The position numbers and the translations under genes were made by a program. DNA of 64,000 nucleotides, from assembly GCA_963555755.3 (NCBI GenBank), contig OY820905.2, forward strand, positions 3,777,196 to 3,841,195, read 5' to 3'. Under the pieces are notes generated by a model. That model was not told the origin of the DNA. It did not search any database and worked only from the letters and a program-made list of their open reading frames with translations. Each line of letters starts with the position of its first letter. Position 1 is the stretch's first letter. This document shows, piece after piece, positions 1,861 through 62,386 of this stretch. Origin of the DNA: Nitrospirales bacterium (lineage in GTDB: Bacteria; Nitrospirota; Nitrospiria; Nitrospirales; UBA8639).

Positions 1861-2967
1861 TGTCATTCCCGACATTTTTAATCGGGAATCCAGGTTTGTT
1901 TTTCTTTGCTATAGGTAGGTTGGAGGAATGGGTTTCTCTGCGGAATTATTAGATGCCGGGTTTCGCCACGGCGCGACGAGGCACTTTTGTTTCGGCAAAC
2001 GTGCCCAACACCAGTGTGCCGCGCATGTTCAACAGCTTGAGGGTGCAAGTCCCTTTGACAACCTGATGGAGGTGAAGTCATAGCGAAGCGCAAGGGCGTC
2101 GTCGTGAGGCGGGGTCTGAAGGAAGCGTAGAGCAACGGCGCGGGCCGATGAACAAGAACCAGATACGAGGCAGTCAGTGTCGGACGAGTGAGCTGGTTTT
2201 CACGAAGTCCATATCCATCAAGGGCATTGGGTGTAAATCTGGCGGTCGTGCGCTGAAGGCGGTTGAGCTTACCTCGGGAGACCTCTCGTCTGTCTTGGCA
2301 CCAAGACTGAGGATGGAGTGATCCATCTTGACCGGGTGAGAGGAGTCAGCAGAGGGCATAGTAGTCCCGGCAGGGACGAAGGCCTGAACGGTCCTGCGCA
2401 AGCAGGGTAAGAGGAGAGGCGAGGAGGCAGCGGCACTCATGAGCGACAAGCGGCTGAATAACCAGTTAACCCTGGCCTTCCCGACAGAGGATAGGGGTGA
2501 AGCCCTAAGGGCTGTCGAGGGAAGTGTCGAATCGCTTGCGGCGAACCGCCCAGTCGAACGCCCGGGTATGGGTGAGCAGTTGAGAGAAGTCTGTACTGGT
2601 GGCCAATCGCTTAACCCACCGAACCGCCGTATACGGACCCGTACGTACAGTGGTGTGACAGGGAAAGCGGGCGACCGCCTACCTATGTCGATTTTCCGCC
2701 CGTGCGCGGCCTTAAAGAGAATGATCAAAACGTTCGTCAGCAAGGCCGCAGGCGCTTTGGCGCGCGCAGCGTACGCGTTAGTACGTGAGCACGGCAAAGG
2801 GCCGAGAACGCCGCTGACGGACGTTTTGGTCATTCTCTTCCGGGTCCCTCCGCCTCCGCCCCGAATAAGAAGGCTCAGGAACTCGCGGAGTCTATCCTGA
2901 GTCTTGTCGAAGGACTCAAACAGCCCTCGCCGAAAAGTCGATTCGGGGCTGCGGCTCCGCCGCATCC
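1861..2967 (-). repeat. Long structured dispersed repeat (family B), copy carrying a nested intron and a nested ERIC-like element
   Basis: Near-identical to 3073-3360 once inserts 2014-2692 and about 2716-2828 are removed; includes an ATTCCC..GGGAAT palindrome. Confidence 0.8.
2014..2692 (+). mobile_element. ORF-less group II intron, class IIC-like, with internal deletion of the RT gene
   Basis: 5' GTGTG. Domain V GAACCGCCGTATACGGACCCGTACGTACAGTGGTGTG with CGC triad. Domain VI ends ..GTCGAT. IEP N-terminal remnant from 2439 is fused to the C-terminal NRRIRTRTY. Confidence 0.9.
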
Positions 2968-3072
2968 GAAGGCGAGAAGACATTCAAGAAACAAACCAAG
3001 TTTTCAAACTGAGGCGTGGGGATAGCAAATCTCATCAAAACTCAATACTCATGCCTAACACCAAATCCATAT

Positions 3073-3360
3073 CGTCATTCCCGACATTTTTAATCGGGAA
3101 TCCAGGTTGGTTGTTTCTTTGCCAAAGGTAGGTTGGAGGAATTGGTCTCTCTGCGGAATTATTAGATGCCGGGTTTCGCCCCGGCGCGACGAGGCACTTT
3201 TGTTTCGGCAAAAGTGCCCAAAACCAATGTCGAATGTTCGCCCGTGTGCGGCCCTGCGGGTCCCTCCGCCTCCGCCCCGAATAAGATGGCGAGGGAAACT
3301 CGCCCTGCTCAAACAGCCCTCGCCGAGAGGTCGATTCGGGGGTGCGGCTCCGCCGCACCC
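3073..3360 (-). repeat. Family B dispersed repeat
   Basis: GGGTGCGGCGGAGCC...CTTTTGCCGAAACAAAAG...GGGGCGAAACCC consensus on the minus strand. Confidence 0.85.
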
Positions 3361-3442
3361 GAAAGCGGGATGACACTTAAGAAACCAAAAAAATCATTCT
3401 CCTCCATTTTTCTGCTTTGCCTTATCGCATCAAATCGTGTTC

Positions 3443-3703
3443 TTATTTATGAGCTTCGTAGTAGGAGCGAAGCACTGCATTCATGCGGGTCTGATACCCA
3501 CGTCCCTGGGCTTTGAACCATTGTAAAATATCAGCGTCAAACCGAATGGTGGTCGCTTCTTTAGGACGATCAGGATAGACTACTTTCGCGTGCTTCCAAA
3601 AATCATCCGGCAATGGCGGCCCCGGCGGTGCGTCTTTCCGCGTTTTGCCCTTCTTCGTCATCGCCTCTTCAAGGGTGATGGTGGTGATATTTTTCTTCTT
3701 CAT
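3443..3703 (-). CDS. brnA: BrnA family antitoxin
   Basis: TTIRFDADILQWFKAQGRGYQTRMNAVLR motif. Confidence 0.9.
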   Translation of the reverse strand: MKKKNITTITLEEAMTKKGKTRKDAPPGPPLPDDFWKHAKVVYPDRPKEATTIRFDADILQWFKAQGRGYQTRMNAVLRSYYEAHK

Positions 3704-3941
3704 CTCGTCCTGCCTTCCACGCTGAAATTATCCGGCGCTTCTCCCCGCGCCAAGTCCATACCACAACAAAATACTCTTCCTTATCAAAGCCAATGGATAT
3801 CGTCCGGCTTTCACCGTAATCTTGTCTGGTATCCACCCATTCCAACACCGGATTGGAAAAAATCCGCACCACATCCAGAAAATCTATACCATGCTTTTCA
3901 AAGTTGCTTTGCTGTTTGTCATTATCCCATTCAAAGGTCAC
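3669..3941 (-). CDS. brnT: BrnT family toxin
   Basis: FEWDNDK...NFEKHGIDF...RRIISAWKA; overlaps the antitoxin. Confidence 0.9.
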   Translation of the reverse strand: MTFEWDNDKQQSNFEKHGIDFLDVVRIFSNPVLEWVDTRQDYGESRTISIGFDKEEYFVVVWTWRGEKRRIISAWKAGRDEEEKYHHHHP

Positions 3942-4078
3942 AATTTAAATATACTAACAATTGTACATATAAACAAGAAGTTTGCCCAGAACTTCTTTGT
4001 CCGAGGTAAGTCGCTTGAGTAGCGGAACGCTACCATTCTTAATTATTTGTCATGTCAGTCTTTGCACTTTACTCCGCT

Positions 4079-4335
4079 GGGCGCGGCGGAGCCTCTGTCC
4101 CGAATCGACCCCTTCAGGGAGGGCCGTTTGAGTCCTTCGACAAGGCTCAGGATAGACTCCGTGAGTTCCTGAGCCATCTTGACCTGTCCTGAGTCATGTC
4201 GAAGGATTCGGGACGGAGGCGGAGGACCCGTAGGCCTGTCCTGAGCTGAGTCGAAGGAGCTGCGCACCGGCAGAAATGGTTTTGGTCCCTTTTGCCGAAA
4301 CAAAAGGGACTCGTCGTGCCGGGGCGAAACCCGGC
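4079..4335 (+). repeat. Family B dispersed repeat with nested CTTCGACAAGGCTCAGG palindromes
   Basis: Family consensus, in inverted orientation relative to 3073-3360. Confidence 0.85.
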
Positions 4336-4607
4336 TATAAAGAAATCACTACAAAAAACCCTGAACTCACGAGCCCCAAGCGATACCATTTTTCCTTGTG
4401 AATCAGAATGGCAAGTGCTTGTTGTGTGAAGGAGTCCATGGTGTGATTCGGCGGGTTATATCCGACACAGGTTTAAGTATAAGTTTTAGTCAGCGAAGGG
4501 GGTGTACGATAAAAAACGGAATGCTGGCTTGATGTCGTTATTTCTAGAAGGACAGGCACGAAGGGTAGAAGGTTTGTATCCCCCCTACCCTTCGCCATCA
4601 AAGTTGG

Positions 4608-6818
4608 TTATTGATACAGCTTCGTACTTTCTTCTTCCAGCACTGGGCTCGTGAGTTGATCCGCATTCATCTCAACTCGGAACCGTAAGTCACCAGGCTG
4701 AACCCCTTTTACCGTGATGGTAAATGTCAGACTGTCTTTCGGCTTCAGAATGGGAACCGGGTCAAAATCAACCATTTTCCCAACGAGCACGAGCCTGGCC
4801 GTCGAACCCGTGGAGGAGACATATTCCATGCCGTCCGGGATTGTGGCTGATATTTTGATGTTGGTGGCATTGGCCGTTCCCTGGTTCGTCACGACAATGG
4901 AAAAGGTTGTCTGGGTTCCGATTTCCACGGGATCCGGGTTGTCCATGACTTCAAGGAGCAAGGCAGCTATGCCTTTTACGGTGGTGCAGGCTTCGGCACG
5001 GTCTTGCAGGCCTCGTGCTGTTTGGACAGTGGCGATATTGCACTGCTGACCTTGGGAAACAGCCCGGCCTGTCACGCGCAATGTTTTCGATTCTCCTGGT
5101 GCAATTGTGCCAAGATTCCACGAGACGTCGTTCGTTTTGGGTGTGTGATTGCCAGGAGGATTCGCGCTTTCAAACGTGAAGCCACTAGGAAGCGTATCTT
5201 GAACGATCACCCCAGTGGTTGGAGCACTTCCCGGGTTACTGATTTCAATCGTATAGGTTGCGGTCGTTCCCAGGAATCGATTGTTCGGGCCAGTTTTCTT
5301 TATGGCAATACCGGGTTTCTCTATTACCAGATCACAGCTCGTTTGTTCACGTAAATTTCTTCCGCCGGTGACCCGGGCCACGTTGGTCACATTGCCAGGT
5401 TGGTTGGCCGTGAAGGTAAAGACTTCGGTGGCGGTGGATCCTGCCGGCAAGACGCCAACTTGCCGCGTCACCTCCGGCTGTCCGGAGACATGACTCATGC
5501 CGCTCGGGACAATATCGGTAATCTGAACATTCCTGGCTTCTCCGGTACCGGTGTTCGCAACGGTGACAGAGAATTCTGACGTATCTCCCACAATGACGGT
5601 TGAGGGACATGTTTGTGAAAGAGACAGAACCGGTTCGCCGACTGCCACGGAACACATTGATTGACTGCGCACCCCGTCATTGGCTTGAACGAGGACTTCG
5701 TTCACCGGCGTGCCGCTGGTTTTTGCTTTCATGCGAATAATGACTTGCCTGCTGGTTTGGGCTGGCAAATCGGTCAAATTCCAGATTAAAGTATTTCCGG
5801 ACATCTGAGCTTGTGGATTCGCACCAATGAATTCCATCCCGTCAGGAATAGTGTTGCGCAGGATCACATTGCTGGCATCCACTTGCGAGGAATTGGTGAT
5901 CGTGATCGGGAATTCGACGACATCGCCCACTACCAGGGCTGATGGACATTGTTGGTCTAAGGTGAGGGATGGAGCCATCCAAGTGGTGGATGTAACGCCT
6001 TTGGCAATGACTCCACTGACCGCCGGGCAACACGCGCGGTCGGATTCTTCCGGTTTGACTACGTTGATATGAACCGCATTGCCACCCGGTCCTGGGGTTT
6101 GTTGGGACAACGTGACTTGGGCTACCCCATTTTCATCGGTTTCGGTTATGGCTTCAGCTTGCCCACTTTCCTCAAAAAAAGCTTCAGGTCCGGACGTGAC
6201 ATTCCATTCCACTTGGTAGCCGACAAGAGGCGCACCGGTTGAGGCTTTTCTCACTGAAGTGGTCAATGTTCGAGACGTTCCCACTTTCTGTGTGCCATCA
6301 GCAGGGAATTCCCATTGCGCATCTAACCAGTGCATGACCGCAAAGGCTTTATGATCGCTTTTGTCCTTAATGTCCGGGACGACCGCGATGAGATGTGTGG
6401 TGCCTTCTTGAACAGAGGTCAAGGTTACGGTGGATTCCCCTCGGCGATTGGCTCCACCGATGGCGTAGGTGTTGTCGATCTTCAATGCCCGCTTCAAGGG
6501 ATCTTGTCCGACTTCGATAATATCCCCGACAGCACCGTTGGCCCGTGCGAGAATCCATTCTACCACGGCGCTATAGACGCGTTTCCCTTTGGCATCTTTG
6601 ACCACCGCGGTGAACGTTTGTTGGGTGTTGATAGGGCTGGTGTGTTGAGCAGGTTCGATGGTCACGGTGGCCGGAGGAGAGGTAGGATCAGACAAGGGTC
6701 TGCCATATTTGGTCACATGCTCACTGTACTGAATTCAGTTACAGCCTTGAGCCACGACCACGACAACAACGAGCCAATTCCGTAAAATGCGAGTTTCTAG
6801 CCAGCGATCCCGATTCAT
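4608..6818 (-). CDS. OmcB-like cysteine-containing DUF11-repeat lipoprotein with in-frame TGA at codon 28 (pseudogene or read-through)
   Basis: RBS GGAGGA and ATG at 6818; signal peptide LVVVVVVAQG-C; TGA at 6735-6737 in frame with the 702-aa ORF; repeated Ig-like DUF11 units (ITITN...VILRNTIPDG, TYTIEISNPG...VQDTLP) with paired Cys. Confidence 0.75.
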
Positions 6819-6849
6819 AATGTCCTCCTGCAAAACACGTGATCGTTAA

Positions 6850-7028
6850 GGACCTGAGAGAAAATAACTTGGACACTATCGCGCCAAGTTTTGGGTTGGA
6901 TTTGGACGGAACGATTGAGAAAACCCCGAGGCATAGCACAGCTATGTCGAGGGTTTTTCGATTGAGGCCCGTTCAAAGATGGCCCGAAGATAGGATGCGA
7001 GATGTCCAAGTTATTTTCTCTCAGGTCC
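6850..7028. mobile_element. 179-bp MITE with 26-bp TIRs and TAA direct repeats
   Basis: GGACCTGAGAGAAAATAACTTGGACA at both ends; TAA at 6847-6849 and 7029-7031; a solo right end occurs at about 24003-24027. Confidence 0.85.
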
Positions 7029-7273
7029 TAAGGGGGATGAACGCTTTATTTCTCGACAAAAGCAGTGGATGACAATATCCGGCTTGTAGGGAATAAAAGC
7101 AAGACCAAATCATACCCGAGAGTAGCATGTCCATAGAGACGAGAATCTTTGTTCTCATAAATTCCTGGATTTCGATTTCCCCATGCCAAACTCGTTGGAT
7201 TCTTGTGGATTTTGCAGAACCTACCAAGAGTGCGTAGAAGGGTGCAAAGATACTCAGAACCTCACTTCCATGA

Positions 7274-7289: not shown

Positions 7290-7528
7290 CTTGATATTTG
7301 CAAAATGTGATGGGGTGCGGTTCAATATAGAAACAGATGCAGGCTGCGTGAACCCTAAAAACGGCAGAAACATGCCCACTCTCCCGTTCATGCTTCGACC
7401 CTTCGAACGAGCTCAGGATTTAGTATAACCGGGGTGCTGAGCCCATCATCTGTTGAGTGAGAGGCCGTTCGCCTTGAGCGCCGCAGCAGTCGAAGGGTTC
7501 CGAGTTTTCCAACGGCCGTTACGCGAAG

Positions 7529-7742
7529 GGGTCTGTTGAATATTTCAGGTCCATGACCCATAGATGCTCCAGGTAAGCCTGCTCGCATCAGTGGGAGGGA
7601 ATGTTCAAAAAAGCATGCCCTGAGTCTTTCCGAAGGGTCTATCCAGCAAGGCCGCAGCCCTTTTGACGCGCGGAGCGTACTCTCAGTACGTGAGCACGGC
7701 AAAAGGGCGAGAACGTCGCTGGCGGCTTTTTTCAACATTCCC
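7529..7742 (+). mobile_element. MITE family G-A (ERIC-like core), 5-bp TSD CGAAG
   Basis: Ends GGGTCTGTTGAA/TTCAACATTCCC; CGAAG at 7524-7528 and 7743-7747. Confidence 0.9.
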
Positions 7743-7771
7743 CGAAGAGAAAAAATAACTGGGAGCGTGCG

Positions 7772-9954: not shown

Positions 9955-10385
9955 GCGGGGTGTCGTCCCCGCACGACGAGGTCCTTTTGTTTTGGCAAAA
10001 GTACCTCGTCTGCAGGGGCGAAACCCTGCATTTAATAACTCCCTAAGAGACCCATTCCTCAACCCTACCTTCCGCAAAGAAGAACCCAACCTGGATTCCC
10101 GATAAAAAATGTCGGGAATGACTGATCAAATAGTTGCAGGCAAATTTTTTTCATCTCATATTTCTTGGTCTTATAGATTCCAAACGCCTTTCACCCCGCG
10201 TTGGGTGCGGCGGAGCCGCAGCCCCGAATCGACTTTTCGGCGAGGGCTGTTTGAGCGGAGCGAGTTCCCTCGCCATCTTATTCGGGGCGGAGGCGGAGGG
10301 ACCCGTAGGGCCGCGCACGGGCGAAAATGGTTTTGGCTCCTTTTGCCGAAACAAAAGGACCTCGTCTGCAGGGGCGAAACCCTGC
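9955..10385 (+). repeat. Two family B repeat units (9955-10122 and 10203-10385)
   Basis: Family consensus motifs and a CTGGATTCCCG..CGGGAATGAC palindrome. Confidence 0.8.
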
Positions 10386-12163: not shown

Positions 12164-12201
12164 TGCGTAATGCGTGAAGCGTGATGAGTAAGGAAAAAAG
12201 A

Positions 12202-12769
12202 GTGACGAATGGGTTGAAAACGCATAAAGATCTGGATGCATGGAATAAAGCAATGGAACTTGTTGAATGGGGCTGTTGAATAATTCACGTCAATAGCCAA
12301 TAAACGCTCCATATGAGCCCCACACCGAGTGGGAGGGAATGTTGAAAAAAGTCCGTCCAGCAAGGCCGCAGCCCTTTTGACGCGCGGAGCGTACACTTTG
12401 TACGTGAGCACGGCAAAAGGGCGAGAACGCCGCTGGCGGCTTTTTTCAACATTCCCTGAATCTATTTACAGGCTAACGACTCAATACCCCAAGGAAGAGA
12501 CGTATGGATTAACGTTGCAGACAAGACGGTCGGCCATTTCGATCCCGAGCAATATTGCTGAGGGTGCGGCGAGAAAATCTAAAAAAGAATTTATTCAATT
12601 TTTGCATATAGCCCTCGGGTCGCTTGCGGAACTAGAAACACAACTTATATTAGCGGCCAGGTTGAAATTTATTAGAAACCAACATGAGTTGAACCAAGTT
12701 AATCAGTTAAGGCAAATTCTCTTAGGCCTCTTGCGTTATTTGAAGCGAAGATCGGCTGCCAGTGAATAG
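12202..12769 (+). pseudogene. Four-helix-bundle protein (23S rRNA IVS / Avd-like family) interrupted by a MITE
   Basis: KTHKDLDAWNKAMELVE + SIYRLT...RRSAISIPSNIAEG...SLAELETQL rejoin in frame when 12269-12456 and one TGAAT are removed. Confidence 0.9.
12269..12456 (+). mobile_element. MITE family G-A, 5-bp TSD TGAAT
   Basis: GGGGCTGTTGAA...TTCAACATTCCC; TGAAT at 12264-12268 and 12457-12461. Confidence 0.9.
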
Positions 12770-12819
12770 GCGGTTGCTCAGTAACGCTTTACGCATCACG
12801 CATTACGGATAACGAATCT

Positions 12820-13729: not shown

Positions 13730-13958
13730 GGGGATGTTGAAAAATGGCGTCAGCCTACGCCGGAGCTTCGGCAGACAAGCCAGCGGCGTTCTCGGCTCTT
13801 TGTCGTGCTCACGTACTCACCCGTACGCTCCGCGCGCCAAAGCGCCTGGGGCCTTGCTGAGCGCACCTTTTTGAACATCCCCCTACAAGCTTGGCGTTTT
13901 ATAAGATGAACTACGCGATAACGGCATTATTAAAATTTAAGTACTATTCAATAGGCCC
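13730..13958 (-). mobile_element. MITE family G-A, reverse orientation, TSD AATGA
   Basis: AATGA at 13725-13729 and 13959-13963; core motifs reversed. Confidence 0.85.
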
Positions 13959-20935: not shown

Positions 20936-21161
20936 GGGAAGGTTGAAAAAGGGCGTCAGCCTACGCCGGAGCTTCGGCAGACAAGCCAGCAGCGTTCTCG
21001 GCCCTTTGTCGTGTTCACGTACTATGAGTACGCTCCGCGCGTCAAAGTGCCTGCCGCCTTGCTGAGCGAACCTTTTTGAACATCCCCAGTTGCTCTTGGC
21101 GTTTTATAAAATGAGTTACATGCGAACGGCAATATAGAAATTTTAATTATTCATCAGCCCC
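20936..21161 (-). mobile_element. MITE family G-A, reverse orientation, degenerate TSD
   Basis: Closely similar to 13730-13958; flanks GAGGC/AAGAC. Confidence 0.8.
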
Positions 21162-23981: not shown

Positions 23982-24083
23982 TACGCATCACCCATCACGT
24001 GTTTCCAAGTTATTTTCTCTCAGGTCCCAAAGCCCCTGTCTCTTCCATCCCCAACTGGGCCCAATCACATCTCTCTCGCCTTC

Positions 24084-24297
24084 GTGCGCGGCGGAGCCGG
24101 AGTCCCGAATCGAGCCCTTCGGCGAGGGCTGTTTGAGCGCAGCGAGTTCCCGAGCCATCTTGATTTGGGACGGAGGCGGAGGCACCCCGGAGAGCCTGCT
24201 TCTGAGCAGGGTCGTAGGGGCCGCGTGCGGGCGAACATGGTTTTGGGCACTTTTGCCGAAACACAAGTGCCTCGTCGCGCGCGGGGGGGGCCGCATA
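24084..24297 (+). repeat. Family B dispersed repeat
   Basis: Family consensus. Confidence 0.8.
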
Positions 24298-24304
24298 CAA
24301 TTAA

Positions 24305-24445
24305 GGGCACCTCTAAAAACCGTCCTTTTCCGTGATGGCGGCGTCAGCCGCGTGCTCACATCCTCATGTATTCGCCCATACACTCCGGTTTTCCGCGCGC
24401 GGCTTCCTTGCCCTCACAAAAAATGCCTGGTTTGTAGAGGTGCCC
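24305..24445. mobile_element. 141-bp MITE with TTAA direct repeats
   Basis: GGGCACCTCTA..AAAC/GTTT..TAGAGGTGCCC; TTAA on both sides. Confidence 0.85.
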
Positions 24446-24637
24446 TTAATTTGTTCGTTGAACCACTGAACCCGGACGAGCTGAAACCAAAGACGTCGTT
24501 CCTCACTACTTCCTAACGGCCATGTCCCTTTTCTGTCAAGAAAGCCCACTTCCTTGCGGCCCCAAAAATCTGTTTGTTAGAATTCTGACTCTTTAGGTAG
24601 TAAATTTTACACCATAGGGCAGTTTGAGGTTTAATTC

Positions 24638-29563: not shown

Positions 29564-29641
29564 AAACAAATTTCTGGAGCAGCATCATCTTATGCTGCCT
29601 TCTTGTTCATCGGCGCCCGGGCTTTCGCTTAAGCGATTGAA

Positions 29642-29804
29642 CCTAGAAACGGCAGTTGGGCGCAAAAAAGCCGTGTAAGATATTGGTGTGCATGATGAAA
29701 TACAAAAAGTCGTAGTCACCTCGGTGGTGATAAGACATTTTTGTATTTTATCAGGTGCGCCAAGAGCTTGCGCGGACTTTTGTGATCCAATTGCTGTTTC
29801 TAGG
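29642..29804. mobile_element. Second copy of the 163-bp CCTAGAAAC MITE, TTGAA direct repeats
   Basis: Same length and termini as 1228-1390; TTGAA at 29637-29641 and 29805-29809. Confidence 0.9.
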
Positions 29805-29817
29805 TTGAAGGCCAAAT

Positions 29818-32305: not shown

Positions 32306-32572
32306 GGGTCTGTTGAATATTTCAGATCCATACCCATAGATGCTCCAGGAAAGACGGCCCGCATCAGTGGGAGGGAATGTTCAAAAAAGTCCGTCCAGCC
32401 CTGTCCTGAGCAGAGTCGAAGGAAAGGCCGCAGCCCTTTACGGCCTTCGTAGCTCACTTCGGCGGAGTAGGCATGACGCGCGGAGCGTACTCTCAGGCGT
32501 GAGCACGGCAAAAGGGCGACCGTGTCTGTGCGAAGCCCGAGAACGCTGCTGGCGGCTTTTTTCAACATTCCC
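32306..32572 (+). mobile_element. MITE family G-A, TSD ATAAA, with nested palindromes
   Basis: ATAAA at 32301-32305 and 32573-32577. Confidence 0.9.
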
Positions 32573-32673
32573 ATAAAGGATGTCGGGGATGATAAACAAG
32601 GAATGGATGGACAGGTTCCAATCAATCCACCTCCCTCATTTGATACGTCGATTCTTCCCTTAGGTTCCTGCGT

Positions 32674-32906
32674 GGGGCGCGGCGGAGCCTCCGTCCAGAA
32701 TCGACCCCTCTGGCGAGGCTGTTTGAGTCCTTCGGCAAGGCTCAGGATAGACTCCGCGAGTTCCCGAGCCATCTTGATCTGTCCTGAGCCAGGTCGAAGG
32801 ATTCGGGATGGAGGTGGAGGAACCCGAAGGGCCGCGCACGGGCAAACATGGTGTTGGGCACTTTTGCCGAAACAACAGTGCCTCGTCGCGCGGGGGCGAA
32901 ACCCCG
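32674..32906 (+). repeat. Family B dispersed repeat
   Basis: Family consensus. Confidence 0.8.
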
Positions 32907-40572: not shown

Positions 40573-40786
40573 GGGGCTGTTGAATAATTCGCGTTAATAG
40601 CCAATACACGCTCCAGATGAGCCACCCATCGTCAGTGGGAGGGAATGTTCAAAAAAGCATGCCCTGAGTCTTTCCGAAGGGTCTATCCAGCAAGGCCGCA
40701 GCCCTTTTGACGCGCGGAGCGTACTCATAGTACGTGAGCACGGCAAAAGGGCGAGAACGCCGCTGGCGGCTTTTTTCAACATTCCC
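40573..40786 (+). mobile_element. MITE family G-A, TSD ATTAT, nested in a family L repeat (40496-40830)
   Basis: ATTAT at 40568-40572 and 40787-40791; the empty site with a single ATTAT is seen in the 39829-39944 copy. Confidence 0.9.
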
Positions 40787-43764: not shown

Positions 43765-43865
43765 TAATTTTTGACAGGCTCCTAGCAACATCCTGCCAGT
43801 TTTGCCAACCACCCGTCATTCATGGTACACATACTGGGTACACTTCAAAGTGTGACGTTTGCGAA

Positions 43866-44022
43866 GGACTCGCGCGAGAATACCTTTCCCTGTTTGGGTG
43901 CTGAGGCACCTGTCTGGCAAGGCGCGAGGACTGCGCATACTCTTCGTATGGAAAGGACGAGCAACGCCGCCAGACGAGATGGATCGACGCACAAACAGGG
44001 GAAGTTATTTTTGCGCGAGCCC
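43866..44022. mobile_element. 157-bp MITE-like element with a diverged ERIC-like core
   Basis: Inverted ends GGACTCGCGCGAGAATA/TATTTTTGCGCGAGCCC; core GCAAGGCG..GCATAC-loop-GTATG..AACGCCGC. Confidence 0.7.
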
Positions 44023-44040
44023 TAAAGGAGACTTTTTGTA

Positions 44041-44250
44041 ATGAAAGCAGGGATTCATCCAGATTACCGCGAGGCGACCGTGAGTTGTGCATGTGGTGCG
44101 AAATTTCAAACTCGTTCCACAGTCGGAAACCTCAAGCTCGATATTTGTTCCAGTTGCCACCCCTTCTTTACCGGAACCCAAAAAATTGTAGATGCGGAAG
44201 GGCGTGTGGAACGGTTCAGGAAAAGATACGCGAAAAAAGCCAAGGCTTAA
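44041..44250 (+). CDS. rpmE: 50S ribosomal protein L31
   Basis: [26 protein letters not shown]. Confidence 0.98.
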
Positions 44251-44540
44251 GAGCCTGTCCCAGATTAGCCGAATCTACTGCGGATGTGCTGGAGGTGGCC
44301 AGATGTTCCGATCCTTTTCGGGGAATGTTGAAAAAGACCGCCAGCTGCGTTCTCGGGCTTTTGGCGTGCTCACGTACTCCGTGTACGCTCCGCGCGCTAA
44401 AAGCCCTGCGGCCTTGCTGGACGGCCTTTTTGAACATTACCCGTTTTCGTTGAATAGTCCCACTATTCGCCTCAAACGATCGAAACATCTGACTCAAACC
44501 AGCACATCCTCGTGACGATCGATAATCTCGGACAGGCTCC
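44250..44540. mobile_element. MITE family H (GGAGCCTGTC termini, TA target) with a central ERIC-like core
   Basis: TA|AGAGCCTGTCC...GGACAGGCTCC|TA at the rpmE stop codon. Confidence 0.85.
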
Positions 44541-48592: not shown

Positions 48593-48682
48593 GTGAAGCG
48601 TGAAGCGGAAGAGACAGTTAAGGGTGCTATTTCCCTTTTTTTCTCATTACGCATGACGCATCACGCATTACTCATTACGAAA
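48593..48682. repeat. Inverted heptamer arrays (empty hairpin) between hisG and hisD
   Basis: CGTGAAGCGTGAAGC ... TTACGCATGACGCATCACGCATTAC. Confidence 0.75.
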
Positions 48683-48714
48683 TAAGCCTTGCTACGCAGT
48701 CCCTTAAGGCGATT

Positions 48715-50599: not shown

Positions 50600-50698
50600 G
50601 AAGCGTGATGCGTGAAGCGTAAACCGTGATGCGAATAAGATTAAAATATAAATCAATCCTTCTACACGCATTACGCATCACGCATCACGCATCACGGG
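50600..50698. repeat. Inverted heptamer arrays (empty hairpin) between hisB and hisH
   Basis: CGTGATGCGTGAAGCG ... CGCATTACGCATCACGCATCACGCATCACG. Confidence 0.8.
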
Positions 50699-50705
50699 TC
50701 CCGAA

Positions 50706-51326
50706 ATGATTGCTATCATTGACTATGAAATGGGAAATCTTCGGAGCGTTCAAAAAGGCTTCGAAACCGTTGGGTATGATGCCATAGTCACGCGGGACCC
50801 AGCAGTCATTGACCGAGCCTCTCATGTGGTATTGCCAGGGGTCGGCGCGTTTGGCGATTGTGTGGCAAATCTCAATCGGTTCGAGTTAGTGGAACCCCTC
50901 CGTCGTTCCATCTCTCAAGGAAAGCCGTTTTTAGGAATTTGTTTAGGCCTGCAAGTGTTGTTTACGGAAAGCGAGGAGTTTGGCTCCCATCAGGGGTTGG
51001 ATATTTTTAAAGGCAAGGTCAAACGTTTTTCTTTTGCCGAGCACCACGGGAAGGGCTTAAAGGTTCCTCATATGGGATGGAATGCCATTCGTATCCAGAC
51101 TCCGAGTCCGCTTCTGAAGGGAATCGAACCTGAGTCGTATGTCTATTTTGTGCATTCGTATTATGTCGAACCGGCGGAGTCAGAGGTGATCTGTACGGAA
51201 ACGACCTATGGGATTCCGTTTGTCTCGAGTATCGCACATGACAATATTTTTGCCTGCCAATTCCATCCGGAAAAAAGCCAACGCATCGGTCTTCAACTTC
51301 TTCGCAACTTTGGAGCATGGAATTGA
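50706..51326 (+). CDS. hisH: IGP synthase glutaminase subunit
   Basis: PGVGAF, GICLG, HMGWN, QFHPEKS. Confidence 0.98.
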   Translation: MIAIIDYEMGNLRSVQKGFETVGYDAIVTRDPAVIDRASHVVLPGVGAFGDCVANLNRFELVEPLRRSISQGKPFLGICLGLQVLFTESEEFGSHQGLDIFKGKVKRFSFAEHHGKGLKVPHMGWNAIRIQTPSPLLKGIEPESYVYFVHSYYVEPAESEVICTETTYGIPFVSSIAHDNIFACQFHPEKSQRIGLQLLRNFGAWN

Positions 51327-53635: not shown

Positions 53636-54332
53636 TTCCAAATTAGCAAAGCGACACATTGCCGAAACCCTCCAATTTGATGAACATGGGCTCATCCCTG
53701 CGGTGGTTCAGGATTGGAGAAATGGCACGGTCCTCATGCTCGGATTTATGAATCAGGATGCACTTGATCAGACCATGCACACGGGGAATGTGCATTTTTG
53801 GAGTCGCAAACGACAACGATTGTGGGAAAAAGGAGAAGTGTCGGGGAATTATCTCCAAGTGAAACGTCTGTTCGTCGATTGCGATGGGGATACATTGCTT
53901 ATCAAGGCGGAACCAATGGGACCGACCTGTCATACGGGAAGCCGGTCCTGTTTTTTTTCTGAAATATCAGACGAGGGAATCTCAATAGAACCCGAAAGCG
54001 AAAAGGCGAATGGAACCATACTCGATCGTTTGTACGAAATGGTGTTGAACAGAAAACAGGATCCTCAAAAAGATTCCTATGTGGCGTCCCTGTTACAAGG
54101 TGGAGACGATCGGGTCCTGAAAAAAGTGACGGAAGAGGCCGGGGAAGTCTTGCTGGCCGTGAAGAACCACAACAAAGAAGAAATTGTGTGTGAAGTGGCC
54201 GACCTCTTGTTTCATACGATTGTGACGCTTGGGCATTGTGGTATTCCGGTGACGGATATTCAGGAAGAACTGGGCCGACGGTTTGGGGTGTCCGGGCTTA
54301 AGACCAAGCCTGAAACACGAGCGGGTGAGTAA
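53625..54332 (+). CDS. hisIE: Bifunctional PRA-CH / PRA-PH
   Basis: [35 protein letters not shown]. Confidence 0.96.
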
Positions 54333-54333
54333 A

Positions 54334-54412
54334 CCTTGAAACGGCAGTTGGGCGCAAAACAGCGGTGTACGATATTGGTGTGCATGGTGCAATACAAAAA
54401 GTCGTGGTCACC
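54334..54412. mobile_element. Truncated left half of the CCTAGAAAC MITE
   Basis: CCTTGAAACGGCAGTTGGGCGCAAAA..GATATTGGTGTGCATGG..AAAAAGTCGTGGTCACC. Confidence 0.8.
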
Positions 54413-54603
54413 TGGCTTAGTTTTTGATCAAGTTTCCATTAGACACCTGAGGCCATGATCAAAAAATGTCCTACGGTGTTGTCGTCAGTTGACTTGTTTG
54501 TTCCCCCTTGTTATAGTCCAGTAAATTGTTCTTATTTTACAATAGCTTACAAAGAATTTGCCCTTCAAACACCAGGTTAGCAGAAAGGCCTTAGGGAAGA
54601 GCC

Positions 54604-56436: not shown

Positions 56437-56448
56437 CCTCAAGTCTAA

Positions 56449-56661
56449 CAGGATGTTGAAAAAGGCCCGTCCAGCAAGGCCGCAGGTGCTCCCGGCCTTC
56501 GTAGCCACTTCGGCGGAGTAGGCTTGGCACGCGGAGTGTACAAGAGGTACGTGAGCATGACCAAGCACCGACCTGCCTGCGCGAAGCCGATCAGGCGAAG
56601 GCAGGAAATGCCGCTGGCGGACCCTTGGGCAAGACTCAGGGCATGCTTTTGCAACATCCTG
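56449..56661 (+). mobile_element. ERIC-like core in CAGGATGTTG termini, with nested palindromes
   Basis: CAGGATGTTGAAAAA...TTTTGCAACATCCTG. Confidence 0.75.
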
Positions 56662-56684: not shown

Positions 56685-58514
56685 ATGGCGAAAACCGTAC
56701 TGTCGAGAAAATCGAAAGTGGTTCTAGCTTTTGAGAAAAAGAAAAAACGGACTCTGGCGAAGCCTATGAATTCTGCTGTCCAGACTGTTGTCTCAACCGC
56801 TACGCATGTTGCAAATCTCGTCCAGGCCATCGAAAAAACGGAAGGACAAGGGCGGGCTGCTGTGGAATCGGGGAATTCATTATCCCAAGCCTCAACTCCG
56901 CCTGAGCGTGTGTCGTCGGGCTCTGATACTCGTGAGGAGGGCAAAGCCCTGCCGGAGGACAGTGAGCGTGAGATTGATCTCACGCCTGGAGAACTTAGTA
57001 AAACCGATGATCCGGTGCGGCTGTATCTCCGGGAAATGGGCAGTGTGTCATTGCTCAGCCGCGAAGGCGAGATTGAGTTAGCGAAACGGATTGAAGATGG
57101 CAAACATGAATTAGCTTTTGCCATTGCCGGCATGCCCATGACGTTGCTCTATTTGGATGCCCTGCGTCTCGCGATAAAAAAAGGGGACTTACGGGTTCGA
57201 GATTTCGTGCTGGTTCATGTGCCCACCGAAGAGGAGGAGCTCGAGGAAGAAGACGTCGAAGACGAACAAGATGAAGAAGAACTCCTGCAGCGCACCCTGG
57301 CGGAACTCGAGAAAATGCGCCGGGTGGGCAAGAGCCTACTCACCATCTATGACAAGCGGCGCAAGGCCTCGTCAGCGCAGCAGGCCCGGATTGGGAAGCA
57401 ACTCCATGGAGTGCAGCAACAGATTGTCGAGCGGCTTGATGCCATGAATGTGCAACAGGCAGTACGGGATGAGCTGTTGCGGCGGATTAAAGAGAAAGGG
57501 GTCGCGTTACGGGGAGCCGAGCGTGTGGTGGAGGATTGTTGCCGGCGGCTTGGGAAGCCACGGACAGAAGCCGCCAAAGTGATTCGGCAGATGGGGCGGA
57601 AGCGGACGGTCTACACGGCGGTGCGGCGGAGGACGGGCTATAGCGATGAGGCCTTAGAAAAGCTGATGCGGGCGTTTCAGGACGGGCAGGGGACGGTGCG
57701 GCGGATCGAACAGGAAGAGGTGCTGCTGCCGGCGGCCGAATTCAAGAGGGCGTTCCTGACGTTAGAGTGGGCCGAGGAGAAGATGAAGCGGGGAAAGGCG
57801 GAGTTGATTGAAGCGAACCTGCGGTTGGTTGTGAGTATTGCGAAGAAGTATACGAACCGGGGACTGCAGTTTTTAGACTTGATCCAAGAGGGCAATGTTG
57901 GGTTGATGAAGGCGGTGGATAAGTTTGAATATCAGCGGGGATATAAATTTAGTACGTATGCGACGTGGTGGATTCGGCAGGCGATCACGCGAGCGATTGC
58001 GGACCAGGCGCGAACTATCCGCATCCCCGTGCATATGATCGAAACGATCAACAAGCTGGTGCGGACGTCGCGGCATTTGGTACAGCAATTGGGGCGGGAG
58101 CCGACGCCGGAGGAGATTGGGGAGCGGATGGAGGTGCCGCTGGAGAAAGTGCGGAAGATCTTGAAGATTGCGAAGGAGCCCATCTCGTTAGAGACCCCGA
58201 TCGGAGAGGAAGAGGACAGTCATTTAGGGGACTTTATCGAGGATAAGAAAGCGGTGTCGCCAATAGAAGCTGCCGTGCGCTATGATTTACACCGTCAAAT
58301 TTCTACGTCGTTGAGCACGTTAACCCCCCGAGAGGAAAAGGTTCTTCGCAAGCGGTTTGGGATTGGGGAGGCGACGGACCATACGTTGGAGGAAGTGGGA
58401 CAGGATTTTGCTGTGACGCGGGAGCGGATTCGGCAAATTGAAGCCAAGGCGTTGCGGAAACTGCGGCATCCCACGCGGAGCAAGAAGTTACGGAGTTTTG
58501 CCGAAGGATTTTAA
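56685..58514 (+). CDS. rpoD: Primary sigma factor RpoD
   Basis: [56 protein letters not shown]. Confidence 0.98.
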
Positions 58515-58580
58515 ATCGTGATTCGATACGCGTGAGGCGTGATCTGAAACGTGTTTTCCCTCTTGCGTTTTCACGCTTCA

Positions 58581-58794
58581 CGGCCTGTTGAGTATATCAC
58601 TCCAACAGCCAATAAAAGCTCCAGATGAGCCACGCATCGTCAGTGGGAGGGAATGTTCAAAAAAGCATGCCCTGAGTCTTTCCGAATGGTCTATCCAGCA
58701 AGGCCGCAGCCATGTTGACGCGCGGAGCGGACTCATAGTACGTGAGCACGGCAAAAGGGCGAGAACGCCGCTGGCGGCTTTTTTCAACATTCCC
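58581..58794 (+). mobile_element. MITE family G-A, TSD CTTCA, nested in a heptamer hairpin
   Basis: CTTCA at 58576-58580 and 58795-58799. Confidence 0.88.
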
Positions 58795-58821
58795 CTTCAC
58801 GGATGACGCTTCACGAATTCC

Positions 58822-58898
58822 GGGCCCATAGCTCAGTTGGTTAGAGCGGCGGACTCATAATCCGCTGGTCCCAGGTTCAAGTCCTGGTGGGCCCACCA
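58822..58898 (+). tRNA. tRNA with CAT anticodon, probably tRNA-Ile2 (lysidine)
   Basis: Cloverleaf, anticodon loop CTCATAA, encoded CCA; position after rpoD fits Ile2. Confidence 0.92.
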
Positions 58899-59085
58899 GC
58901 CTTCGCCAAGGCTTCGGCTGGCATGCCTGAAGAAAAGGCTGTCCGCCAGAGGTGGCTTTAGCATCGAGGGCGAAGGCGGATTGAATTGAACTTTCTCGTA
59001 GACTTTCTGCCATCTTTGATCTTTTATGATGAGATTCGGTAATGTAAGCTTTCGTTGACACAGACTTCTCCTTTCTAACATAGAG

Positions 59086-59847
59086 GTGTTCTTGAACGCA
59101 CAACTGTCCCTCCTGGTTCAGCTTCAACAGTTCGATCTCAACATTCATAAACTGGATGATCAACGACACAAGATTCCTGCCCGTATCGATGAAGCCCGTT
59201 TTGCCTTCGATCAGGCCAATTCGCGCCTGGAAGATATCAAGACGGCACTAGAAAAGGCCACGACTGACCGGCGCAGTGGTGAGCAAGATCTCGATGAACA
59301 AGAAAGCCATGTGCAAAAACTTCGTACGCGGCTCATGGAACTCAAAACGAATAAGGAATATCAGGCGCATTTATTTGAAATCGATTTAGCCAACAAAAAA
59401 AAGGATTCGTTAGAGGAGCGAGTTTTGCTGGCCATGGAACGTGGCGAGGAAAAGCAGAAGGAACTTGAAGAGGTTCAGGGTCTTGTTAATGATGCGATTC
59501 AATCTTTTACGCAAGAGAAAACTCAATTAGAGTCCAAGGCCATTGACCTTGACCGGGAACTCGGGGAAATGAAGGTCCAGAAAGACGACGTGCTAAAGTT
59601 GTTGGACAAATCCGTGTACGCGCGGTACACGAAACTCAGGTCTACCCTGAAAGTTCTCGTGGTCGCGCAAGTGAGTGGTGGTACCTGCCAGGGCTGTCGA
59701 TTACAAGTTCCCCCTCAGTTAGTTGCTGATGTCAAACGCGCGGATCAATTACTGACATGTCCGTACTGTTTTCGAATTTTGTACGCCGAAGATTTGCCTG
59801 GTACGGCGCCTGAGTTTTCCAATGCTCAGGAAGTCGCTGATGTTTAG
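59086..59847 (+). CDS. Coiled-coil protein with a C4 zinc ribbon (CT398/DUF164-like)
   Basis: KTNKEYQA..EI, CQGC..PPQ...CPYC.RIL. Confidence 0.92.
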   Translation: MFLNAQLSLLVQLQQFDLNIHKLDDQRHKIPARIDEARFAFDQANSRLEDIKTALEKATTDRRSGEQDLDEQESHVQKLRTRLMELKTNKEYQAHLFEIDLANKKKDSLEERVLLAMERGEEKQKELEEVQGLVNDAIQSFTQEKTQLESKAIDLDRELGEMKVQKDDVLKLLDKSVYARYTKLRSTLKVLVVAQVSGGTCQGCRLQVPPQLVADVKRADQLLTCPYCFRILYAEDLPGTAPEFSNAQEVADV

Positions 59848-60136
59848 GAGCCTGTCAAAAATTAGATGGATCAACGTCGGGTGTCCTTGATTTGGCCATA
59901 TTTCCGATCCTTTTCGGGGAATGTTGAAAAAGACCGCCAGCTGCGTTCTCGGGCTTTTGGCGTGCTCACGTACTCCGTGTACGCTCCGCGCGCTAAAAGC
60001 CCTGCGGCCTTGCTGGACGGCCTTTTTGAACATTCCCCGTTTTCGTTGAATAGTCCCACTATTCGCCTCAAACGATCGAAACATCTGGCTCAAACCAGCA
60101 CCCTCTCATGACGATCGCTAATCTCGGACAGGCTCC
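59847..60136. mobile_element. MITE family H at a stop codon
   Basis: TA|GGAGCCTGTC...GACAGGCTCC|TA. Confidence 0.88.
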
Positions 60137-60214
60137 TAGCGGTATCCTTCACACCGATAGAAACAGCCAAGATTGCTTGTTTCCTCTAAAACAGCCTATT
60201 ATTATTCATGGAAT

Positions 60215-60677
60215 CATGGAGTGGGTGAGGTGATCGCTCGTTCTCGTTTGGGCCAGGGAATGAGAGGAAAGTCCGGACTCCAGAGGGCAGGGTGCTGGGT
60301 AACGCCCAGGCGGAGCAATCCGACATGAGCGCCACAGAAAACATACCGCCGAAGGCCTGGATCTTTCGAGATCCTTGGCCAGGTAAGGGTGAAATGGTGG
60401 GGTAAGAGCCCACCGCATTCATGGTGACATGAATGGCAGGGCAAGCATCACCCGGAGCAAGACCAAATAGGGGGACGAGCCGAACGGGTTTCTCTTCATT
60501 CCATATCTAGGCCCATCGGGATGAAGAGTGAAATCGTGATGTTCGGGGGAGGTCGGCCCGGCCGAAGTTCTCGGGTAGGTTGCTAGAAGCTCACGGTAAC
60601 GTGGGTTCCAGAGACATGATCACCCCCGTGGTCTTTTGGACTACGGGACAGAATCCGGCTTATCAACCCACTCCATG
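60215..60677 (+). ncRNA. rnpB: RNase P RNA (bacterial type A), unusually long
   Basis: GAGGAAAGTCCGGACTCC, GGAGCAAGACC, ACAGAATCCGGCTTAT; P1 helix CATGGAGTGGGT/ACCCACTCCATG. Confidence 0.95.
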
Positions 60678-60816
60678 TATTTCCTTTTTTGTCATTGCCA
60701 AACGGGAAATAATTCGTCATAGAGAGTGTCTCTAGGCGAATTTCACTTTTCATTTGTTTGACGAGGGTAGACCCCTTTGTTACCATGCCCCTACCTTTTT
60801 TCAGCATTCGAGTATA

Positions 60817-60894
60817 GTCCCCATCGTCTAGCCTGGCCTAGGACGCCGGCCTTTCAAGCCGGCAACACGGGTTCAAATCCCGTTGGGGACGCCA
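60817..60894 (+). tRNA. tRNA-Glu (TTC)
   Basis: Cloverleaf, GCCGGC-CTTTCAA-GCCGGC anticodon arm, CCA end. Confidence 0.95.
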
Positions 60895-60904
60895 CGATAA
60901 CCAA

Positions 60905-60938
60905 GGCCGCTGAACCTCGTTTCAGCGGCTCTTTTTTT
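60905..60938 (+). terminator. Rho-independent terminator after tRNA-Glu
   Basis: GCCGCTGAA/TTCAGCGGC stem followed by a T run. Confidence 0.8.
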
Positions 60939-61130
60939 ATCTGGTATGCGAGGTTGAATCAGGTACCACAGGGGCTCTCATAACAGTGGGGTTTTCTCGG
61001 TTGTGATCACTGAACCCACTTTGTACAATGGGGAAGCAGTATCGAATGAGTGTGCCAGGAATAATTGGCCACGACATACGAACAGAATTACACCCTGTTT
61101 TTACTTTGAGCTGGTATTGGAGGATGGGTC

Positions 61131-62096
61131 ATGCTTTGGGAAACACTTAAAAAAACTGGAGTATGCTTGACGTATATCGTTGGAGTTGTGGGAGTCGTAC
61201 TTGGAGGGCATCCAGCGGAGGCTGAATGGAAATATGATTCATCCGGACCGTCGATCGAATCACACTTTGAAATGACAACAGGAAAAGATGGCGCTCCCAT
61301 GATTAAAATCCCCGAAGGGGAATTTCTGATGGGAGCGAACGATGGCCCCAGAAATGAACGTCCTGAGCATACGGTATATTTGGATGCCTATTATATCGAT
61401 CAGTTTGAAGTGACGATGGAGCGATATCAGGTCTTTTTAGATGAAACCTATCATGATTTTCCTCCTCTCTGGAATGATGGTGCTGCGGTAGAAGAAGCCA
61501 AGGATCGGCCAGCCGTTGGCATGGCGTGGGCCAGTGCCAAAGTCTATTGCGAGTGGGCGGGCAAGCGCTTACCGACCGAAGCCGAGTGGGAAAAGGCAGC
61601 TCGGGGAACCGATGGGCGTCGTTATCCCTGGGGGCACATGCAGCCCTTTGTGGATATCGCTCGATATAATCTTGGTACTACCGGGTGGGTCAGTTATGAT
61701 ACTACGCTTGCTTCGGTGACGAGTGGAACATCAGGGATGAGTATTCGCCACGGCTTGAAACAAGGCACAAAAAGTCCCTTTGGGCTTTATCACATGGCGG
61801 GGAATGCTTCGGAGTGGGTGGCTGACTGGTATGACCGATCCTATTATGAAGAGAGTCCTGTAAAAAACCCCACCGGTCCTGCCGAAGGGGAACGAAAAAT
61901 CTACCGCGGTGGATCCTGGGAAGACCCGCCTAAACGCCTTCGGGTGACCGCTCGTGCCGGTGCGGAATCGGACTTTCCGATTGAAGCCAACGATCTCACT
62001 ATTGGGTTTCGTTGTGTGCAGGACGGGAAAAATGAAAGTAGTACAGTTACACAAGTGTCGCCAGAAACAGATAACGGAGAGTTAAAGAAGGACTAG
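61131..62096 (+). CDS. FGE-sulfatase (SUMF1-like) domain protein
   Basis: RLPTEAEWEKAARG, SPFGLYHMAGNASEW, RGGSW, GFRC. Confidence 0.93.
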   Translation: MLWETLKKTGVCLTYIVGVVGVVLGGHPAEAEWKYDSSGPSIESHFEMTTGKDGAPMIKIPEGEFLMGANDGPRNERPEHTVYLDAYYIDQFEVTMERYQVFLDETYHDFPPLWNDGAAVEEAKDRPAVGMAWASAKVYCEWAGKRLPTEAEWEKAARGTDGRRYPWGHMQPFVDIARYNLGTTGWVSYDTTLASVTSGTSGMSIRHGLKQGTKSPFGLYHMAGNASEWVADWYDRSYYEESPVKNPTGPAEGERKIYRGGSWEDPPKRLRVTARAGAESDFPIEANDLTIGFRCVQDGKNESSTVTQVSPETDNGELKKD

Positions 62097-62386
62097 GAGC
62101 CTGTCCAAGATTAGCGATCGTCACGAGGATGTGCTGGATTGAGTCAGATGTTTCGATCGTTTGAGGCGAATAGTGGGACTATTCAACGAAAACGGGGAAG
62201 GTTGAAAAAAGGCGTCCAGCAAGGCCGCAGGGCTTTGGGCGCGCGGAGCGTACACGCAGTACGTGAGCACGCCAAAAGCCCGAGAACGCAGCTGGCGGTC
62301 TTTTTCAACCTTCCCCGAAAAGGATCGGAAGATCTGGCCACATCCAGCGCATCAACCGTAGATCTGTCTAATCTTGAACAGGTTGC
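62096..62386. mobile_element. MITE family H, reverse orientation, degenerate right end
   Basis: Reverse complement of 44250-44540; begins at the TAG of the upstream gene. Confidence 0.85.

Follow-up and report, generated by a model that had tools for sequence, protein, structure and literature searches.

ERIC (enterobacterial repetitive intergenic consensus) repeats have been known since 1990-91 and are used for strain typing worldwide. To our knowledge, neither their function nor their transposase has yet been established. ERIC, also called IRU (RU-1 of Delihas), is an intergenic imperfect palindrome of ~125-127 bp found in tens to hundreds of copies per genome. Its described biology includes an RNase E site unmasked by insertion, TA flanks, and a range of copy numbers (PMC10969869, PMC3184786), and reviews confine it to the Enterobacteriaceae and Vibrionaceae. 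Here we describe a hairpin repeat of the same kind in a 64,000-nucleotide stretch of a Nitrospirales genome (contig OY820905.2; hereafter the window, within which all coordinates are given). The host lies outside the reviewed range of ERIC: the best matches to its RpoD are from Nitrospirales metagenome-assembled genomes (MAGs), at 57-71% identity. The repeat is a non-autonomous DNA transposon of ~122 bp, a MITE (miniature inverted-repeat transposable element), and we regard its membership in an ERIC superfamily as very probable.

To count copies, we ran on the window, with filters off, a covariance model (R1) made from 25 related Nitrospirota cores that came only from other genomes and included no ERIC. 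R1 finds 14 copies: 10 intact, all at E<=3e-20, two split by internal insertions, and two diverged. The tip motif GGAGCGTAC-N5/6-GTACGTGAG occurs exactly 7 times in the window, with 0 expected, and the 5' motif CAGCAAGGCCGCAG, allowing up to 2 mismatches, gives 13 matches (0.4 expected), 11 of which are true copies. All 14 copies are intergenic, often filling nearly the whole spacer between housekeeping genes; occupied sites include the ybeY-ftsY, ftsY-peptidase, dnaG-rpoD, and rpoD-tRNA-Met spacers and the region upstream of the RNase P RNA gene. Each intact copy folds as a single long hairpin on either strand (z -4.5 to -10). In the DNA run that holds this genome, relative k-mer depth reaches ~8,700 over the repeat as compared to ~50 over unique sequence, and the genome should therefore contain on the order of at least 100 copies.

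The basic unit, 122-125 bp, forms one long imperfect hairpin. Its outer stem, GGGAATGTT(C/G)AAAAAAG...CTTTTTT(C/G)AACATTCCC, encloses a lower part consisting of P1 (CCAGC:GCTGG), an AA bulge, a GGC:GCC helix, and an internal loop of CGCA against GAGAAC. The upper part has the 9-bp P2 stem, CG and GC pairs around a C.A mismatch, and a GGA/GA internal loop, and it is capped by a 6-bp tip stem (GCGTAC:GTACGT) that is closed by a G.U pair and carries a 4-7 nt loop of free sequence; an AAC bulge lies on the return strand, at the 3' side of the core. The central ~80 nt are conserved and the ends are not. No variation is seen in the tip or the unpaired residues among the 25 related copies, whereas P2 does vary, with compensating changes.

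The link to ERIC holds in both directions. Run on 776 kb of Enterobacterales DNA comprising ERIC-bearing loci, R1 returned 36 hits at E<=10; ERIC cores account for 29 of these, aligned full length and in register, and the best hit has E 2.3e-5. Conversely, a second covariance model (R2), made from 26 ERICs only, ranks the window copies at the top of its hits in the window, on the correct strand and at E 4.6e-6 to 0.04. Bona fide members from other phyla whose tip is identical reach 25-47 bits with R1, a range into which ERICs also fall (<=35 bits). ERICs that we fetched from Enterobacterales read ..CAGGAGCTTAC-N4-GTAAGTGACTG.., and the window core, GCGGAGCGTAC-loop-GTACGTGAGC, is this motif with one compensated pair, although it differs in the helix below the tip. 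ERIC carries AAGGCGGC ~21 nt before the tip, the tip GGAGCTTAC-loop-GTAAGTGA with its GA/GA loop and G.U closing pair, and CCAACGC ~17 nt after it. The same three modules, with the middle one generalized as GGAGCNTAC-loop-GTAN'GTGA, recur at the same spacing in the window repeat, which further resembles ERIC in its size, its intergenic placement, its copy number, and its lack of a known transposase. Chimeric intermediates join the groups: an ERIC body with the G-C tip (locus L361), ERICs of Morganella and Providencia with an A-T tip, and Nitrospirota bodies with A-T or C-G tips (L294 and L318). The differences are nevertheless clear. The tip pair is G-C in the window and T-A in ERIC; below its tip the window repeat adds a bulged G and a conserved C.A mismatch; its ends are GGGAATGTTSAAAAAAG with an A-run and T-run, whereas those of ERIC are TATACCC..ATTCGAG; and its target-site duplications (TSDs) are 5-6 bp (varied 5-mers in the long form, CGAAAA around a nested copy), while ERIC has TA. 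The only TA flanks in the window belong to the shell of an unrelated element, family H. Separately, we noted a second, shorter enterobacterial repeat family (L200 6420-6482, L206 1093-1156, L190 306-368, and L207 6514-6577) that has the exact tip of the window repeat (CCGGAGCGTAC-ACGTA-GTACGTGAGG) in other flanks (..GGCGTTATTGGCGCAGGCAGTTTGAAC..TTCAAAATGGCAAGCAAAATAGCC..); compared with ERIC, RU-2, and RU-3 of Delihas, it matches none of them.

The shared architecture (AAGGC, ~20 nt, GGAGCNTAC-loop-GTAN'GTGA, ~17 nt, AACGC) extends well beyond these two lineages. In a collection scan, the exact 25-base tip was found at at least 109 loci (0.004 expected), with matches listed from Nitrospirota, Nitrospinota, Bacillota, Alphaproteobacteria, Myxococcota, Gammaproteobacteria, Verrucomicrobiota, Actinomycetota, and Spirochaetota, and with outer stems that are completely different. 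A generalized pattern that leaves the tip pair half free, AAGGC-N18-24-GGAGC[A/C]TAC-N3-7-GTA[G/T]GTGA, gave at least 120 loci (~10 expected) and added Bacteroidota, Campylobacterota, Desulfobacterota, and Betaproteobacteria. Many matches lie in isolates or complete genomes (Desulforudis, Paenibacillus, Mesorhizobium, Phyllobacterium, Porphyromonas, Idiomarina, Morganella, and Providencia). Since the search patterns themselves make the tip invariant within a scan, we take as evidence the flanking motifs together with the spacing, the hairpin length, and the free pair. That pair is complementary in 121 of the 125 matches listed (119 A..T, 2 C..G, and 4 non-complementary), and in 28 of 29 matches among viral contigs when both tip positions were left fully free. 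The 3' AAC(G/A), which is absent from the search pattern, follows in 115 of the 129 matches listed, as compared to 23 in shuffles. Hairpin span has its mode at 120-129 nt in the window-type (G-C), ERIC, and A-T-tip groups alike, and the outer stem stays paired. The wider finding is a pan-bacterial ERIC-type family defined by its centre, of which the window element is a variant; keyword searches of one literature library returned no description of ERIC-like elements outside the Gammaproteobacteria, and searches with the printed motif sequences returned unrelated primers alone. The window organism itself occurs in marine-sediment metagenomes, and near-identical repeat flanks are present in a MAG labelled Nitrospinota. 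One A-T-tip copy, in Idiomarina seosinensis (L299 212-258), sits between two tRNA genes, in the spacer that adjoins one end of a 16S rRNA gene in an rRNA operon.

The fold is conserved across phyla along with the motifs. Aligned to the model, 107 distinct sequences spanning several phyla have double changes at 22 of 27 pairs, with 326 compensatory cells as compared to 78+-8 in shuffles and at most 109 in slid controls; fitting the alignment to the model inflates pairing, yet the slid controls carry the same bias and score far lower. We used the model-based alignment because MAFFT with RNAalifold on the cross-phylum set recovered the tip helix alone. The residues that vary least are unpaired ones, and one arm of the hairpin has other irregularities than its partner; maintenance of a simple palindrome therefore cannot explain the conservation. 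By-eye comparison with a K-turn, the sarcin-ricin loop, SRP domain IV, boxA, attC, ssoA/PAS, the hairpin ribozyme, and CsrA sites gave a poor fit in each case.

These results bear out much of an original prediction made from the letters of the window alone. It had counted about 14 recurrences of the core, as R1 does, and had recognized diverged forms in a TTAA element and a GGAC-ended element, which R1 detects at E 0.005 and 0.06. The ERIC core that it gave agrees with the real consensus, the T-A to G-C change that it took for compensatory is so, given that the free tip pair is complementary in most matches, and the flanking motifs that it thought ERIC-like have the same spacing in the ERIC consensus. 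The structure-aware alignment to ERIC that it proposed is significant both ways (R1 2.3e-5, R2 4.6e-6) and in one register. It was also right to place the conserved unit in the internal structure instead of the ends, the centre being far better conserved, and across many phyla.

That the repeat is a DNA transposon follows from its TSDs, an empty site, high copy number, and survival in intergenic spacers; it has the general features of a MITE, namely terminal inverted repeats, TSDs, small size, no coding capacity, and many copies. One terminal-repeat type is common to 12 of the 14 window copies, with ends GGG(G)...CCC (GGGGYCTGTTGAATA / GGGAATGTTGAAAAAAG). Five copies are long forms, with an added left arm that starts GGG(G/T)CTGTTGAATA and a unit that runs to CAACATTCCC; all five are on the + strand. 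Their 5-bp TSDs are perfect in four, CGAAG at 7524-7528 and 7743-7747 (element 7529-7742), TGAAT (12269-12456), ATAAA (32306-32572), and ATTAT (40573-40786), and read CTTCA(C) in the fifth (58582-58794). The original prediction had assigned seven copies with 5-bp TSDs to its family G-A; the duplication stands, but only five copies can be demonstrated. Its family H, with three copies and a TA target, was accurate: H is a separate element of ~290 bp that has TA flanks and the ends GGAGCCTGTCCCAGATTAG, present as three copies, the complete ones flanked by TA, plus one solo end. Each H copy holds a complete short-form element. The shells lie at 44250-44540 (- strand; nested element at ~44320-44442, core 44341-44420), at 59845-60138 upstream of the RNase P RNA gene (- strand; TA|GGAGCC...GGCTCC|TA, nested element at ~59916-60038, R1 hit 59937), and at 62096-62382 (+ strand; nested element 62193-62316, R1 hit 62216), the last with CGAAAA flanking the nested element on both sides. 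Metagenome contigs contain H shells without an inner element, in which 62186 is joined directly to 62316 and CGAAAA fits both sides. This empty site with its 5-6 bp duplication makes H a nested composite and not a case of capture; family H then copies the nested element as a passenger.

Landing in the family H MITE is one of three routes of diversification that we see, the others being the extra left arm and the gain of internal small hairpin modules. These modules, ~25-35 nt, are inserted at fixed positions, and the same ones recur in other Nitrospirota loci. Insertions lie at 7614-7640, 32389-32470, and 56488-56620, and also in Nitrospira MAGs (L005, L007, L055, and L071); examples are GCATGCCCTGAGTCTTTCCGAAGGGTC, CCTGCCTGCGCGAAGCCG..GGCGAAGGCAGG, and GGCCTTCGTAGC.ACTTCGGCGGAGTAGGC. 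They resemble a mobile layer on a yet smaller scale.

Other families of small repeats are less close. The GGGG-initiated ends and 5-6 bp duplications resemble those of Tn3-family miniature elements, and the TIMEs (Tn3-derived MITEs) also share a long stem-loop and composite elements; however, TIMEs are ~262 bp, usually single copy, and have 38-bp ends that match Tn3-family transposons, as compared to the high copy number here, and the window has no Tn3-family transposase gene. The Correia/NEMIS, RUP, BOX, Nezha, and Chunjie MITEs are likewise small, palindromic, intergenic, and co-transcribed, and can alter mRNA processing. It is their ends that are conserved, each within one genus or family, whereas here it is the centre, across phyla. 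With REP/BIME and REPIN (RAYT) sequences the repeat shares a mosaic modular build and recognition through a hairpin instead of a terminal repeat, but REPs are 20-40 nt with a GTAG/CGTC head, no TSD, and a linked RAYT gene, none of which applies to the window repeat.

We read the repeat as an ERIC-superfamily MITE whose core is, we think probably, a single-strand fold read by a conserved partner. The core would be under selection because one strand folds, as RNA or as transient single-stranded DNA (ssDNA), and is recognized by that partner. If ERIC in Yersinia is a guide, host transcripts reading through the element would most likely be affected in their processing or decay, which would make insertions tolerable or useful. 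Transposase supplied in trans would move it. The whole would thus be a selfish hairpin transposon with a conserved centre, read by a partner that shapes transcript fate. An RNA-level function of the core, which again leans on analogy, is a suggestion that we offer tentatively; in the form given by the original prediction (an RNA module acting in mRNA processing or protein binding) it is plausible. More doubtful is the broader possibility that an ancient module of structured nucleic acid, with a conserved putative protein partner, makes up the ~80-nt core and has been selected in at least 10 phyla, travelling as MITE cargo or body, with ERIC as only its enterobacterial branch.

In a strand-symmetric comparison of the outer arms, G.U exceeds A.C on the sense strand in ERIC (147:43) and in the A-T-tip group (122:59); we used the outer arms since counts on model-defined pairs are biased by the aligner and a whole-arm version is confounded by the conserved C.A mismatch. 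The excess points to one given strand folding, either as RNA or as ssDNA, although shared ancestry is a caveat. Several points weigh against our reading. The window's own group shows no such excess (62:57), and part of that in ERIC may be inherited from the consensus and not reflect independent events. Orientation relative to flanking genes is near random (G-C tip, 36 sense to 51 antisense; ERIC, 55:45), and the repeat is present in contigs from RNA libraries, which as assembler contigs, broken at repeats, show presence and not transcript ends. Covariation is no proof of an RNA role, as DNA-level processes can compensate in palindromic DNA. R2 also scored an unrelated hairpin MITE (6890-6987) at E 0.002, and E values near 1e-3 are therefore not decisive alone. 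The 5-6 bp duplications, set against the TA flanks of ERIC, imply that the two elements did not move in the same way. Finally, no cognate transposase or autonomous insertion sequence (IS) with matching ends was found in the window and 109 further loci (L001-L109); apparent long elements with matching ends in the searched loci are chance pairs around housekeeping genes. The unrelated long-hairpin MITE, 6845-7035 in full, has ends TTAAGGACCTGAGAGAAAATAACTTGGACA and tip CCCCGAGGCATAGC-ACA-GCTATGTCGAGGGG, and reaches a depth of ~6,600 as compared to 50 for unique sequence.

If the ERIC-superfamily reading is true, with the same architecture and conserved unpaired residues from Nitrospirota to Bacteroidota and Bacillota, then the constraint is no lineage-specific accident, the reader of the hairpin should be a widely conserved bacterial factor, and the old question of what ERIC does becomes testable. 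Annotators should also be warned that many small RNAs (sRNAs) and hypothetical open reading frames in MAGs would be copies of an ERIC-type element.

The alternative that survives best is the one favoured by the original prediction, in which a free-standing module has been captured independently by unrelated IS termini, the wrappers having separate origins. The window does show three insertion signatures (5-bp TSDs of the long forms, TA of the H shells, and the TTAA-ended element at 24299-24451), the outer 27 nt cannot be aligned across phyla, and the polarity of the outer A-run and T-run is reversed between groups. We nevertheless consider capture unlikely. With one end type in 12 of the 14 copies, H shown by its empty site to be another MITE into which the element has inserted, and no IS with matching ends in the loci searched, repeated capture by unrelated termini is not supported in the form proposed. 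Two further end types of the prediction, CAGGATGTTG (56449) and GAGAATGATC (2715), do exist, but the CAGGATG and GAGAATG ends are drifted versions of GGGAATGTTSAAAAAAG and not different termini. The constant length of ~122 nt with a paired outer stem is fitted at least as well by descent of the whole element with fast-evolving ends, and descent of the whole hairpin more easily explains the constant motif spacing across phyla.

Less favoured again is a purely DNA-level element, in which a cruciform or ssDNA hairpin is recognized by a host or transposon protein and the RNA fold is incidental; candidate readers would be a HUH/RAYT-type enzyme (as for REP), a resolvase, or a nucleoid or replication protein. 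It would account for orientation being independent of flanking transcription and for a bias of the sense strand with respect to local GC skew, which, over loci L110-L348, is ~2:1 both in ERIC (31 on the G-rich to 60 on the C-rich strand) and in the A-T group (32:63), with the same trend in the G-C group (35:49). The sense-strand G.U excess fits ssDNA equally well, and the unpaired residues are invariant in sequence, suggesting protein contact. Near-random gene orientation together with the skew bias is a misfit to an orientation-dependent RNA role acting site by site and keeps such a model alive. We nonetheless think it quite improbable as the whole account: staggered-cut target duplications are typical of DDE transposases and not of HUH enzymes, no associated gene was seen, and in the window the tendency is opposite, 8-9 copies lying on the G-rich strand as compared to 4-5 on its complement. 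Skew taken locally over 8 kb is also a noisy proxy for replication direction.

That the repeats are not mobile but paralogous sRNA genes or cis-regulatory RNAs is very unlikely. The strong covariation, the conserved loops, and the presence of the repeat in RNA-library contigs would suit such a family, as would two Rfam sRNA families, V_AS5 (RF02818) and Ysr49 (RF02766), which match a bona fide ERIC (L116 4520-4681) at E 2e-6 and 5e-5, without reaching their gathering scores. Both appear to be ERIC transcripts, and through them ERIC copies have been seen as transcripts; they are narrow sequence-level models, however, and in searches at gathering and at permissive thresholds no Rfam family matches a window copy (E<=10) or any of 17 loci from other phyla (E<=0.1 or E<=0.05). 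TSDs, the empty site, the order of at least 100 copies by relative depth, and placement in any intergenic spacer in either orientation all speak for mobility, and a scanner found no promoter or terminator at the elements. One candidate sRNA gene in the left arm of the long form (promoter TTGAAT-17-AATAAA, hairpin-U6 terminator) was rejected for a -10 box without the conserved final T.

Convergence or chance likeness to ERIC between two long GC-rich hairpins is largely refuted and scarcely credible, for although individual E values are modest (1e-5 to 1e-2) and an unrelated MITE reached E 0.002 with the ERIC model, the matches are reciprocal and in the same register, 29 of 36 hits within 776 kb fall on ERIC cores, three separate motifs are identically spaced within an identical total length, and chimeric intermediates exist (L361, Morganella, Providencia, L294, and L318).

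The remaining copies and the long forms differ in detail. The short-form element at 2715-2839 (+ strand; core 2737-2817) has the variant ends AAGAGAATGATCAAAACG...CGTTTTGGTCATTCTCTT, scores 90 bits with R1 (E 7e-21), folds at -79.5 kcal/mol (z -10), and is the best R2 match in the window (E 4.6e-6). Fragments of a group II intron (Rfam group-II-D1D4-3 and D1D4-1) lie ~330 nt upstream of it at 2098-2384, in a repeat-rich non-coding stretch (~940-4600) and with no intact intron reading frame nearby. The long form at 7529-7742 (core 7643-7722) comprises the extra left arm GGGGTCTGTTGAATA.., the inner GGGAATGTTCAAAAAAG, a 30-nt mini-hairpin insert, and the right end CAACATTCCC. The long form between ybeY and ftsY (12269-12456) has its core at 12357-12436 and a fold z of -9.5. 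A contig found in DNA run X1 and in RNA-library run X25 joins 12181 to 12798 via AAAAAACCGTATTTTTTA, at the depth of unique sequence, and is an element-less alternative ybeY-ftsY spacer or a paralogous locus.

Two copies on the - strand form one subfamily: 13730-13882 (core 13780-13860), which has ends GGGGATGTTGAAAAA and a 30-nt internal hairpin insert, begins 5 nt past the ftsY stop codon and stops 9 nt before the next start codon, and 20936-21087 (core 20986-21065). The diverged TTAA element at 24299-24451 (- strand; hit 24335) has other ends (AATTAAGGGCACCTCTAAAAACC) and is found by R1 at E 0.005 and by R2 at E 3e-4; its tip, GGAGTGTAT..ATACATGAGG, shows compensatory changes, and the GCAAGG and GACGCC motifs are retained. 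Three internal insertions and a damaged tip mark the long form at 32306-32572 (hit 32474, R1 E 4e-4), while that at 40573-40786 (core 40687-40766) scores 109 bits with R1. The weakest member is the shortened and diverged GGAC-ended relative at 43865-44023 (+ strand; ends AGGACTCGCGCGAGAATACC.., hit 43914, R1 E 0.06), which retains CTGGCAAGGCG...GAGCAACGCCGCCAG without GGAG/TGAG. The element between dnaG and rpoD (56449-56661, + strand; ends CAGGATGTTGAAAAAG, hit 56522, R1 E 3e-5) has three internal mini-hairpin insertions and the tip GGAGTGTAC..GTACGTGAG, and the long form between rpoD and tRNA-Met (58582-58794) has its core at 58695-58774.

Other repeats share the window. An abundant family (D7, D15, D16, D18, and D19) occurs at 4081-4315, 10180-10366, 24061-24276, and 32652-32887, and also at 2915-2995 and 3308-3388; it has a conserved ..GCGCGGCGGAGCC..CCGAATCGA.. 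segment and a TTTTGCCGAAACAAAAG hairpin, and its copies often adjoin the ERIC-like copies. An AT-rich repeat of ~90-170 nt (families D9/D10), at 1221-1395, 29635-29809, and 54327-54413, reaches depths of 590-4,300 in sediment metagenomes as compared to 6-65 nearby. Heptamer-like runs (ACGCATC / ACGCATT) at 48634-48683 and 50658-50707 occupy two intergenic spacers of one gene cluster.

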